Source of the DNA: Octopus vulgaris
Lineage: Eukaryota
Assembly (NCBI GenBank): GCA_951406725.2
Contig: OX597833.1
Coordinates: 64,046,001-64,110,000 of the forward strand
Reading direction: 5' to 3'
Length of the DNA: 64,000 nt
Position 1 is the first letter of the stretch. The number at the start of each line of letters is the position of its first letter. The translations under genes and the position numbers were made by a program. Positions 29,966-34,046 of the stretch are shown here, piece by piece. Under the pieces are notes generated by a model. That model was not told the DNA's origin and ran no database searches. It was given only the letters and a program-made list of their open reading frames with translations.

Positions 29966-30096
29966 GATAAGAGTAATATAATTAAATACTTAATGAATAG
30001 AGACAAATAAGATAGGACTGGATCTCGTCTTTAAAGCAACTTAAGGACATATTTCAGTCTTATTACACCTCATTCACAAGACGTAATAGACAACTA

Positions 30097-30333
30097 CTCT
30101 TTTACTCTCTTTTACTTTTTTACTCTTTTACTTGTTTCAGTCATTTGACTGTGGCCATGCTGGAGCACCGCCTTTAGTCGAGCAAATCGACCCCGGGACT
30201 TATTCTTTATAAGCCCAGTACTTATTCTATCGGTCTCTTTTGCCGAACCGCCAAGTGACGGGGACGTAAACACACCAGCATCGGTTATCAAGCAATGCTA
30301 GGAGGACAAACACAGACACACAAACATACACAC

Positions 30334-30400
<67 letters not shown>

Positions 30401-30543
30401 TACGACAGGCTTCTTTCAGTTTCCGTCTACCAAATCCACTCACAAGGCTTTGGTCGGCCCGAGGCTATAGCAGAAGACACTTGCCCAAGATGCCACGCAG
30501 TGGGACTGAACCCGGAACCATGTGGTTGGTAAGCAAGCTACTT
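30097..30543 (-). mobile_element. SINE family A, interrupted near its 5' end; the remainder is at 32966-32998
   Basis: Family A consensus runs to ...GGTAAGCAAGCTACTT (30543) and resumes as AAGCTACTTACCACACAGCCACTCCTGCGCCTA at 32966. Confidence 0.9.
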
Positions 30544-32965
30544 TATTTCAACAATTTTGCCACTAGGGCAGCACACAGAGTAGCTACGGGCTGGACAAAG
30601 ACATTAATGGATGATGGTGGTGGTGGATGAAGATGGTGATGGGAGAAGTCAAAAAGCGCCCGCCGACTCTCGCTTCTCTAAAACAATGTTCAATGATTAC
30701 ATTTAATACAATGATTACAAATTACAAATTTTAGAGGAGGCGATAAACCTCCTCTTCAACCTGTTACAGAAATGTTAAAATTGACATCCAATTGCAAATT
30801 TTACAAATTTTAGAGGAGGCAATGAACCTCCTCTTCCACATGTTACAAAGATGTTACACAACCTATGTGACACGGCCGACCATCGCTCTTGCCTCATTGA
30901 GGCAATACTCGCTGGTCAGGTCAGTGTCCAGAGGTATAATTTCGAAGGAGTCCGCTGGGCAGGTATCCACGACCCTGTGTAGATCAGCCCTTCTCACGAC
31001 CTCCGCAGCTAACTGCGAAGGCCACTCGGGGTTCTCCACGCAGGTCCGGAGTACCTCCCAACGTCCTTTCTTTCTCACTTTTCTTACAGTGCTTTCCGCC
31101 TTTTCTCCTTTAGAAAAGAGGAGCACAAAATCTTCCACGAATTGTCCCTCAGGCGGCACACCCGCCTGAGAGGACCCGGGATACTCGGGAACCGCCGTCT
31201 GCGTGTAGCAATCCGCCGGCGGGGCTCCGTTTCTCTTTTTTTTCTTTTTCTTCTGGCCCTGGGCCACGGGAGGCTGAGGTTCCGGAGCTGTGCGCACCGG
31301 GTTCTCCCCTCCCGCAGCTTTCAGGTCCTTCGGTGGGTCGCCATTGCTCCCACCTTCCTTTTTCTTCTTTTGGAGGGGGATCCCCCCCCTCATTTTGCTT
31401 CTCTCCCTCCGTTGAAGAGGCAGGGAGAGGCTCCAATATCAGCCGCTCCAGGATCCTACTCTGGTCCCTGGGGCAGCTCTTCTTGATGTGGCCGGTCTCC
31501 AAACACAGGTGACACTTGGGGGGGGGGGGGCGTCCCTCAAGCATCACCGGATACTTGGACCCGGCCATTCTCAAAAAGTCCGGCAAAACCAGACTCGTGG
31601 CTGACTGGGTCCACAGGGTTAAGGTAGCCTTAGAACCCTCCCAATCAGCCGCAGGCTGTATATTAACATTTAGGATTTTTGCATCCCTGTCACTCAGACC
31701 CCGGCGGATAGAGTCTTCTATCCACTCGGGTTCAATGCCGGGTGGCAGGCCGCAGACCCATAGTCTTGTCAATTTTTCTCCCTTGTAACTAGGGAGAAAC
31801 AACATTTCTTTGCCCTGAATGGGCTTGCTTGCAAAATCGCAAGCATCTTTTGGGGAGTCAAACAGCAACCCAACCGTTGCGTATTTGGCTCCCTGCGTGA
31901 TATATTTCACGGCTGGCATGTGGTCTGCCAGCTCTTCAATAATTTTCGCCTTCGGAAAAACCATGATAGCGTTGAGCGACCTTGAATAAGTCCTCAGTAC
32001 CACGGTCTTATCCTCGAGCTGTTTGACATATTTTTTGGGAGCCTCCAGCTCCCAAACAATCAGTTCCTTTGCCATTTTTAACAAAAAATATTAATACAGT
32101 TTGAATAGAAAAAACACAAAAGTGACAGAAAGAGGGAAGCAAAAACAAAATGGAAACGAGAGTTACAATAAAAACAGTTCGGAGTTCAAATGAAGGATAG
32201 CTAGAGGAAGAAGTTCAAATGTGGCAAAGAATTATTTTTTTATGGCCGAAAAGGTAGTCCAGGCCAAACGTCACGGCAGTCCTTGGTAAGTCTGGTGCTT
32301 GCAAAAACAATCCACGAATATCCTTGGTGCCTCCTGGTAATCCAAGGGTGCAGTATTCCACGTGTGGTAATCCAAAGCGAAATTGGTGCTCCAATGAATC
32401 GAATTATTTTTGATGTGGGCTATGCCTCTTCAAAAAACACACTTCTCACTAAAACGTGAGATTTTAAATACAACAGGCAGAAAAAATATATCCGAAGCAA
32501 GGCGAAGTCTATTACCCGCAAAAAATTATTAACGCTAATTAACGTTGACGTCAAAAAGTATTAATGGCAGGCAATAAACATCGCCAAGCCTCTAAAAATA
32601 TTCAAACAGTCCTACCTGCTGTGCCAAACAGTTCAATATTCCACGTGTGGTAATCCAAGTGTGAAAATTGGTACTCTAATGAGTCAAAAATATTTCTGAG
32701 GAGGGGCTACGCCTTCCTCAAAAAACACAATTTCTATCTAAAAAGTGAGACTTTTAAATACGCCAACAGGTAGAAAAAATATATCCGAAGCAAAGTTTAT
32801 TACGCGCAAAAATTATTAACACTAAGTAACGTTGTTAATGTTAAAAAGTATTAACGGCAGGCAATAAACATCACTTGGCTTACAACAATATTCGAAGGCC
32901 CCACCTGTTAAACGTTAAACGTGACATTTGCCGGAGCGAAGAAAAAACGCGTCCGTTCGGTGAGA
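30544..32965 (-). mobile_element. ORF1-only non-LTR retroelement (HAL1-like, Tx1/L1-derived), apparently complete, with 9-bp TSD AAGCTACTT
   Basis: TSD at 30535-30543 and 32966-32974; ~890-bp 5'UTR with two ~283-bp monomers; gag-like ORF1; ~320-bp 3'UTR ending in AATAAA; no endonuclease or RT coding sequence. Confidence 0.8.
30863..32075 (-). CDS. LINE ORF1-like nucleic-acid-binding protein (RRM-like region plus CCHC zinc knuckle), ~403 aa if one frameshift near 31390 is corrected
   Basis: ORF 31149-32084 has RLWVCGLPPGI (RNP2-like) and CHLCLETGHIKKSC (CX2CX4HX4C). The overlapping ORF 30863-31393 continues with K/P-rich then globular-looking sequence. The two frames differ by one extra base near homopolymer runs at 31375-31390. 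First ATG at 32075. Confidence 0.75.
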
Positions 32966-33059
32966 AAGCTACTTACCACACAGCCACTCCTGCGCCTAAG
33001 TTAGACAGATTTAGAAATGACTAGTATATCAGTTATGACTGTGTTGATAACAGGCTAGC

Positions 33060-33403
33060 GTTGGCAACGACGTGGTTTCGGATTCAGCCCCAATATACGA
33101 TACGTAGAGCATCTTCTATTATAGGGGCCGGCCAATGTTTGTGAATGAATTTAGTTGCTGTAAACGGCAAAAAACGTGTATGTCTTTGGGTGTGCTTGTG
33201 AGGTGTGTGTCCACCCCAACCGCTTGACAACTGGTGTTGGATGATTATTGTACTGGTGAAATAGCGGTTCGACAAAAGATCTCGATAGAATAAGGGCCAG
33301 ATTTCAAAAAAGGAATATGTTCTGAGGTCGTGTTGTTCGATTAAAATTCTTGAAGGCTGTGCCCCAGCATGGTCGCTGACCAATGACCGAAATAAGTAAA
33401 AGA
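33060..33403 (+). mobile_element. Degenerate SINE family A
   Basis: CGCTTGACAACTGGTG...GCGGTTCGACAAAAGA...GTGCCCCAGCATGGTC...TGACCGAAATAAGTAAAAGA. Confidence 0.75.
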
Positions 33404-34046
33404 TAATATGTATGTGTGTACGTGTGTGTGTGTGTGTGTGTGTGTCTATGTGTGTGTGTGTGTGTGTGTAGTTCCACACTATATTTCTTAATATGCGTAA
33501 ATAAACGATTTCTTTAAAGAGACGCACATACTCAACCATCCATAAATACATACACTCACATAAATGTACAAATATACAATTACACACACACGCACACACA
33601 CATACACACAGACATACAGTCACATATAGAGAAACACACACACATACACGCACAAATACATACGTTATACACACATACTGTCGCGACGGCATGAAAATTC
33701 TTTCTTATGTAAGATTAAAAGTCTTTTGAAATCCATCAACTGTGAGATCTTATAATCTTTTTGGTAGCACGGAATGTTTTCTTGGTGGGAATTCTTAAGG
33801 AATGGAACAAAAAACAGAAAATCTTCGACAAAGAAAATATCAGGATCTGCCGAATTCCTCAAAAGAAAACATATTTATGATATAATTATATAAAATATTG
33901 TGACATTGTGTACAAACGTAAGCAAGTGTTGGTTTTTTTTCTTTATATTTGTAGACGTTATATACATAGATGTGTATACAGAAACAGGCGTGCATGGGAA
34001 TATATATACATTCGTATATTCATGGGAATATATATATATATATATA

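Follow-up and report, generated by a model that had tools for sequence, protein, structure and literature searches.

Background

Non-autonomous long interspersed nuclear elements (LINEs) that retain the first open reading frame (ORF1) have already been described in three clades, with HeT-A as the example in Jockey, HAL1 in L1 and Ag-Sponge in CR1 (PMC5786205). The mammalian HAL1 has no ORF2, encodes the ORF1 protein (ORF1p) alone and is assumed to rely on ORF2p in trans (PMC5753468, PMC3627910). Proteins combining RNA recognition motifs (RRMs) with a CCHC zinc knuckle fall into Type I in a review of ORF1p, where variants of this sort from animals other than mammals are described as consistent with the Tx1 clade (PMC5203782).

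Here we describe a 2,422-bp element of Octopus vulgaris, located on the minus strand at 30544-32965 of a 64,000-nt stretch of contig OX597833.1 (positions 64,046,001 to 64,110,000, assembly GCA_951406725.2), which is referred to as the window and to whose first letter all coordinates relate. We consider it fairly probable that this is a full-length, frameshifted copy of a multi-copy ORF1-only retroelement, which likely borrows the reverse transcriptase (RT) and endonuclease (EN) of an autonomous LINE of the L1/Tx1 group. We assign the element to the non-autonomous LINEs that bear ORF1, as HeT-A, HAL1 and Ag-Sponge do, with a likely parent in the L1/Tx1 group.

Structure of the insertion

The 9-mer AAGCTACTT is found at 30535-30543 (3' end of the element) and at 32966-32974 (5' end), and flanks the 2,422 bp as an exact duplication. 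The element interrupts a short interspersed nuclear element (SINE) of the same orientation, whose 3' part spans 30130-30534 and whose 5' part spans 32975-32998; the insertion lies in the tRNA-like head of this SINE, as assigned by eye. In each of three uninterrupted copies of the SINE (6148, 44123 and 56249 in the window) AAGCTACTT is present once, and the flanks of the element, once rejoined, are 95-96% identical to these copies. The empty sites and the identity of the rejoined flanks therefore show that the element was inserted here and that its target site (TSD, target-site duplication) was duplicated. A search of Rfam over 30000-33500 gave 8 matches, all below the gathering score and all in the flanking SINE or microsatellite sequences, and ARAGORN predicted no tRNA genes.

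Read on the minus strand, the element consists of an 890-nt 5' untranslated region (UTR; 32076-32965), an ORF1 span (32075-30863) and a 319-nt 3'UTR (30544-30862). The 5'UTR carries two tandem monomers of about 240 nt (32348-32582 and 32631-32872), which are 290 nt apart and 82% identical to each other. In the 3'UTR there are two tandem hairpins with 9-bp stems (30733-30755 and 30812-30834; z -5.56, 0 of 200 shuffles) and a terminal motif (30556-30583), detected by pattern match and local alignment, that resembles the tail of a LINE located at 62.4 kb in the window. The element terminates with ...GAAATA and has no poly(A) tail. Because this end directly abuts the TSD, the hexamer AATAAA straddles the junction, being composed of the last 4 bases of the element and the first 2 bases of the duplication.

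An earlier note on this DNA had described a 2,422-bp insert that splits a SINE, bounded by an exact 9-bp TSD, with a long 5'UTR and a short 3'UTR ending at AATAAA. The TSD positions, intact SINE copies and flank identity agree with the first part of this description, and the lengths of both UTRs with the second; only the placement of AATAAA at the end of the element has to be abandoned, as the hexamer overlaps the TSD.

Coding capacity of the element

ORF1 extends over two open frames, the first at 32075-31149 and the second at 31438-30863. The Octopus sinensis protein XP_029652367 aligns with frame -3 (32075-31437) and next with frame -1 (31363-31253), and the window copy therefore contains a frameshift between approximately 31437 and 31363, which may reflect either decay or a homopolymer that was wrongly assembled. 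XP_029652367 (281 amino acids, 64% identity) is the nearest protein and the only close one; it is a RefSeq gene model, one protein being deposited under three accessions in O. sinensis.

The first part of ORF1 (31437-32075) is predicted to contain RRM1 (about 32042-31776) and RRM2 (about 31775-31533), followed by the CCHC knuckle (31517-31470), which matched Pfam zf-CCHC with an E-value of 0.033, short of the curated cut-off. AlphaFold2, supplied with a 36-sequence alignment, modeled the first 224 residues with a pLDDT (predicted local distance difference test) of 87. Foldseek returned 61 matches to this model at E<=0.001, and among the matches listed nearly all were RRM proteins. In VIA-align, residues ~11-99 and ~100-180 each fitted RRMs with a root-mean-square deviation of 2-3 A and Z of 7-8.7, values which are middling when taken alone. 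An arrangement of two RRMs ahead of a CCHC knuckle is thus what the models predict.

The second part (30863-31438, with a TAG stop at 30863-30865) lies in the other frame and comprises a charged linker and a C-terminal region. Its frame is stop-free over 191 codons, which was equalled in 6 of 5,000 shuffles. A hidden Markov model (HMM) built from the C-termini of five octopod relatives gave no match to the C-terminal region, despite a likeness visible by eye; the region had no Atlas match either, and its single-sequence model (pLDDT 54) found no Foldseek match at E<=0.001.

The Atlas neighbours of ORF1 (0.90-0.93) are eukaryotic CCHC clusters and clusters of the ZCCHC3 RNA-binding domain (RBD), while a PDB sequence search with an ORF1 alignment (A1, from which 6 of the 41 matches among cluster representatives had been excluded as knuckle-only) yielded mostly zinc-knuckle proteins. 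Of these 41 representatives 29 were looked up, and all 16 that carried a species name were octopods (15 Octopus, 1 Argonauta). Dozens of remote RRM-RRM-CCHC relatives (22-32% identity) were noted as well, many of them uncharacterized Octopus or Argonauta genes and one mislabelled as 'EPM2A-interacting 1-like'. These distant relatives are likely LINE ORF1s.

No sign of ORF2 was detected in the element. The best tblastn match of three ORF2 proteins (queries lacking the EN domain) had an E-value of 0.33, and Pfam recognized no EN or RT family in the two ORF1 frames and 30 further stop-to-stop frames of at least 35 amino acids. Only 319 nt remain beyond the ORF1 stop within the element. The absence of endonuclease and RT reported in the earlier note is thus upheld, and its single ORF1-like gene with a CCHC knuckle is retained as to the protein type and the knuckle, but not as one open frame, the copy being frameshifted. 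Fused ORF1-ORF2 models (alignment A1, lengths 1403-4005) were not encountered among 7,989 scored candidates, which is weak evidence, and two metagenome scans for ORF1 relatives with their flanks yielded 276 and 201 candidate stretches, respectively, none of which was confirmed.

Evidence for a multi-copy family

Contigs of four public runs (X1, X2, X4 and X11; four studies, three organism labels) were aligned to the element at 80% likeness; runs of organisms C and E do not enter the counts. The rows inspected, for the most part from the SINE flanks, were 15 of the 462 joints, 24 of the 1,246 loose ends, 40 of the 489 substitutions and 32 of the roughly 306,000 pieces. Contig depth was not taken as copy number, and X11, which is RNA by guess only, was not read as expression.

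Each of the four runs covered all 30 bins of the element, and the variant contigs at a given site were numerous, reaching 18 at 30973. Two of the listed contigs span the ORF1 stop at 30863 into the element's 3'UTR, namely X1 record 1 (30790-30942), which differs in 28 letters and has 4 gaps, and X11 record 9 (30662-31082), which differs in 34 letters and has 11 gaps. They originate from different studies, are 8% and 18% diverged and extend more than 70 letters on each side of the junction. Variant rows at 30860-30872 imply that X2 and X4 also hold contigs bridging the stop. In addition, X4 record 25 contains the last ~144 nt of the element followed by 435 unaligned letters; this is the element's 3' end on another flank, although it could belong to a sister family. 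Contigs of similar depth in X11 tile 30662-31082, 31101-31524 and 31539-32866 with 4-8% divergence, a pattern that a further near-complete copy would produce, though no single piece covers the whole element. One X4 contig skips 290 nt in the 5'UTR, which suggests that copies with one monomer fewer exist. Rodent L1 promoters likewise vary in monomer number.

As diverged copies bridge the same stop/3'UTR junction and one 3' end is placed on another flank, these data, which include a small part of the junction rows, support a multi-copy, protein-coding, RT-less family in which the ORF1 stop is joined straight to the 3'UTR, rather than a one-off deletion. A protein-coding non-autonomous family, as the earlier note had proposed, is therefore seen here in independent contigs, all of them short.

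The LINE at 62.4 kb and the shared 3' tail

A 5'-truncated LINE of the L1/Tx1 group is present on the minus strand at 62402-63842. It consists of the ORF2 C-terminus (63841-62810) with zf-RVT (E 3e-8), a 3'UTR and a tail (62404-62440), and the RT core is missing from this copy. RVT_1 and zf-RVT both occur in a relative of 69% identity, which in PDB matched L1 ORF2p with E 1e-50 compared with E 1e-24 for R2. Since the relative is nearest to L1 ORF2p, the LINE is placed in the L1 group. The earlier designation of the LINE as Tx1-type is supported by this comparison to the level of the L1 group, and Tx1 itself is a presumptive label. Two side observations concern this copy: its 3'UTR also has a small duplicated hairpin (62524-62539 and 62613-62628), unrelated in sequence to the hairpins of the element, and an identical 108-bp higher-order block of the GATA repeat occurs on either side of the LINE (62217-62324 and 63843-63950), being either satellite tandem structure or an unusually long target duplication.

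The motif common to the 3' ends of the element and the LINE is positioned exactly at 30559-30579 and 62415-62436. A pattern for it gave 2 matches in the window and 0 in 100 shuffles, but had been written from both sequences. An unbiased local alignment of the element with the LINE gave a score that 4 of 5,000 shuffles attained when the last 60 nt were compared, and 14 of 2,000 when the whole 3'UTRs were. The remainder of the two 3'UTRs did not align (202 of 1,000 shuffles reached the score). Both statements of the earlier note on this point, that a terminal motif is shared and that the rest of the 3'UTRs is not, accordingly hold, the shared motif being real but modest.

The window also contains a second SINE family, with tandem copies at 14428-15199 and a single copy at 53637-53900 (both on the minus strand), a further copy at 61081-61268 (plus strand) and partial copies at 47153-47262 and 57287-57672. 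Its members, partly in a head-to-tail array, end in a 37-nt tail that matches the LINE at 62404-62440, and their body presumably resembles a MetaSINE-type core. With an HMM made from the SINE tails only (nhmmer), the LINE tail was the best non-SINE match (E 1.3e-4; 18.2 bits, against 7.5 for the best of 20 shuffled windows), and a covariance model of the same tails recovered it with E 0.0015. Because profiles built from SINEs alone find the LINE tail, we regard this tail as a shared retroposon signal; the second SINE family and the LINE are likely a SINE/Tx1-type LINE pair.

A 4-bp stem is possible in the tails of the LINE, the element and the SINE, with outer pairs A-U/G-C, U-A/G-C and G-U/C-G, respectively, while pair counts over five tails of the second SINE family gave no two-sided change. 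A relaxed regular expression located seven places in the window (the LINE tail, the element tail, four SINE tails and one SINE tail on the reverse strand) and none in 200 shuffles, but it was fitted to those tails and so carries no weight as a test. For the element's tail we favour the reading of a diverged variant, which would point to a sister Tx1-type family as the partner.

Possible mobilization mechanism and alternative explanations

Based on these observations, we suggest that a master copy would be transcribed by RNA polymerase II (Pol II) from the monomer-containing 5'UTR and that the element's own two-RRM/CCHC ORF1p would coat the RNA in cis. A Tx1-type ORF2p, acting in trans, would recognize the 3' tail instead of poly(A), nick the target (here ACTT^A) and, through microhomology, prime on the terminal AA. 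Loss of ORF2 from a Tx1-type ancestor is the likely origin of the family, and the LINE on which it actually depends probably belongs not to the 62.4-kb family itself but to a sister of it. Pol II transcripts are reported to require ORF1p for L1-driven mobilization (PMC2666806), and in guinea pig HAL1 the ORF1 was long kept (PMC3627910).

Several results weigh against this interpretation. The element's tail was not among the 26 matches of the covariance model up to E 10, and it scored only 3.4 bits (E 5.6) with an HMM of SINE and LINE tails. Pair probabilities of the 4-bp hairpin are 0.86-1.0 in the LINE tail but do not exceed 0.21 in the element. The two also differ in their choice of target, which is a GATA repeat for the LINE and a SINE for the element. 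No record joins this ORF1 family to an ORF2, thus descent from Tx1 is argued from the domain type. The window copy of ORF1 is frameshifted, and purifying selection is not visible in the listed coding substitutions (n=21; 8 synonymous and 13 non-synonymous), which are a biased subset (40 of 489 substitution rows). No contig covers the whole element, and the junction rows were listed only in small part, which leaves room for ORF2-bearing copies. Finally, in all four runs contig depth over the RRM/CCHC core (31426-31941) is several-fold above the rest and is made up of ~80%-identical pieces. More relatives therefore share the ORF1 core than the UTRs, and the excess would correspond to a commoner sister family, or to the autonomous parent, with the same core.

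The results on the tail bear mainly on a rather unlikely alternative, in which the family is ORF1-only but the 26-nt motif is an inherited remnant or a chance likeness, mobilization being due to another LINE or to relaxed, tail-independent recognition. It would account for the failure of both SINE-tail profiles to find the element, for the unfavoured hairpin and for the limited strength of the whole-UTR alignment (14 of 2,000 shuffles), and O. vulgaris offers many candidate LINEs: 80 L1-Tx1 consensus families, 13 of them recently active, as well as RTE, CR1 and Dong-R4 (PMC13282606). However, the motif is found at equivalent terminal positions of the two elements, and nothing else in their UTRs aligns; the poly(A) expected for relaxed recognition is absent, and an L1-group enzyme would be in keeping with this type of ORF1 and with a T^A nick that leaves a 9-bp TSD. 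It is quite improbable that, instead of a self-propagating family, the copies represent transcripts retroposed from a host gene that was domesticated from an ORF1, as in L1TD1 or ZCCHC3, even though the nearest protein is a gene model in RefSeq, where one O. sinensis protein has three accessions, and ZCCHC3-RBD clusters occur among the Atlas neighbours. A host transcript would not be expected to lack poly(A) while bearing tandem 5' monomers and a LINE-like terminal motif; the homologue is shorter and only 64% identical, the variant contigs are many (up to 18 at 30973) and diverged by 8-18%, and at least 16 further-diverged octopod gene models resemble the radiation of a transposable element (TE) family.

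The depth and length of the contigs, in turn, touch on whether an autonomous LINE, with ORF2 between ORF1 and the 3'UTR in its other copies, gave rise to the element in a single event of internal deletion or splicing. The few junction rows listed, the lack of a contig over the whole element and the ORF1 core common to more abundant relatives would agree with this. Yet the same stop/3'UTR junction recurs in two listed contigs from different studies, 8% and 18% diverged, and the variant rows at 30860-30872 imply further bridging contigs in X2 and X4, which makes a single deletion event highly improbable. We thus retain an ORF1-only family that depends on an L1/Tx1-group LINE as the preferred explanation.

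Other features of the window

The region at approximately 22576-24069 is richer in GC and contains ORFs resembling a decayed DNA transposase; the frame at 23653-24069 has what we take to be mariner-like motifs.

Comparison with known systems

Three features of ORF1-present non-autonomous LINEs are found here, i.e. an ORF1p-type protein, no ORF2 within defined ends and a repeated ORF1/3'UTR junction; what connects the element to an autonomous LINE is the tail match of ~26 nt only. No ORF1-only Tx1 derivative or cephalopod ORF1-only family was found in the literature searched, which included few subscription papers and no Repbase Reports. The element may nevertheless be contained in the O. vulgaris TE library as an unnamed L1-Tx1 or unknown consensus.

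Like HAL1, the element encodes only an ORF1 product and is without ORF2. In contrast, its ORF1 is predicted to be of the two-RRM/CCHC type (Type I), whereas that of mammalian L1 has the coiled-coil/RRM/C-terminal domain organization of Transposase_22; no Pfam match to Transposase_22 was found in the element's ORF1 up to E 1, and the model begins with an RRM. A 3' poly(A) tail is a feature of L1-mobilized elements. This copy has none, its host is a cephalopod and its origin is independent, and identity with HAL1 in the strict sense was rejected on the ORF1 type and on the poly(A).

Drosophila HeT-A (Jockey) and Anopheles Ag-Sponge (CR1) are, similarly to the element, ORF1-present non-autonomous LINEs of invertebrates (PMC5786205, PMC5537684). 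The element differs from both in its parent, which likely belongs to the L1/Tx1 group, and in its short 3'UTR, and from HeT-A also in being an interspersed insertion with a TSD and not part of telomeric arrays. With the LINEs of the Tx1 clade (Tx1, Keno, Kibi and Koshi) it has in common an ORF1 of the RRM/CCHC type, and its terminal motif is common to the L1/Tx1-group LINE of the window. Kibi and Koshi lie in microsatellites, as does the latter LINE (PMC4494074). Unlike these LINEs, the element lacks ORF2, has the head of a SINE as its target and possesses an otherwise unrelated 3'UTR. In its short terminal similarity to a LINE and its possible hairpin it also recalls the stringent-type SINE/LINE stem-loop pairs (PMC3747384, PMC4824008), but it is protein-coding and 2.4 kb long, the shared part is ~26 nt, and the hairpin is not favoured in this copy.

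RT-based surveys overlook ORF1-only families, and octopus annotations carry their relatives as uncharacterized host genes. The element might constitute a compact natural system for asking why long Pol II retroposons retain ORF1 in cis but SINEs do not, and for probing what is recognized by a Tx1 ORF2. As a more speculative extension, which we put forward tentatively and with some doubt, octopods might harbour a guild centred on Tx1, whose ORF2 would be drawn by a single short 3' hairpin tail to RNAs of three sorts: those of the autonomous LINE, of a tRNA-type SINE and of protein-coding ORF1-only 'half-Tx1' families. These would then represent a fourth independent origin of ORF1-only elements among LINE clades, one independent of poly(A), and many of the unexplained RRM-RRM-CCHC gene models of octopus would belong to this class. 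Should the preferred explanation be true, the design known from Jockey, L1 and CR1 would have arisen again in a mollusc, within the L1/Tx1 group, without poly(A) and with a tail that is also carried by a SINE.

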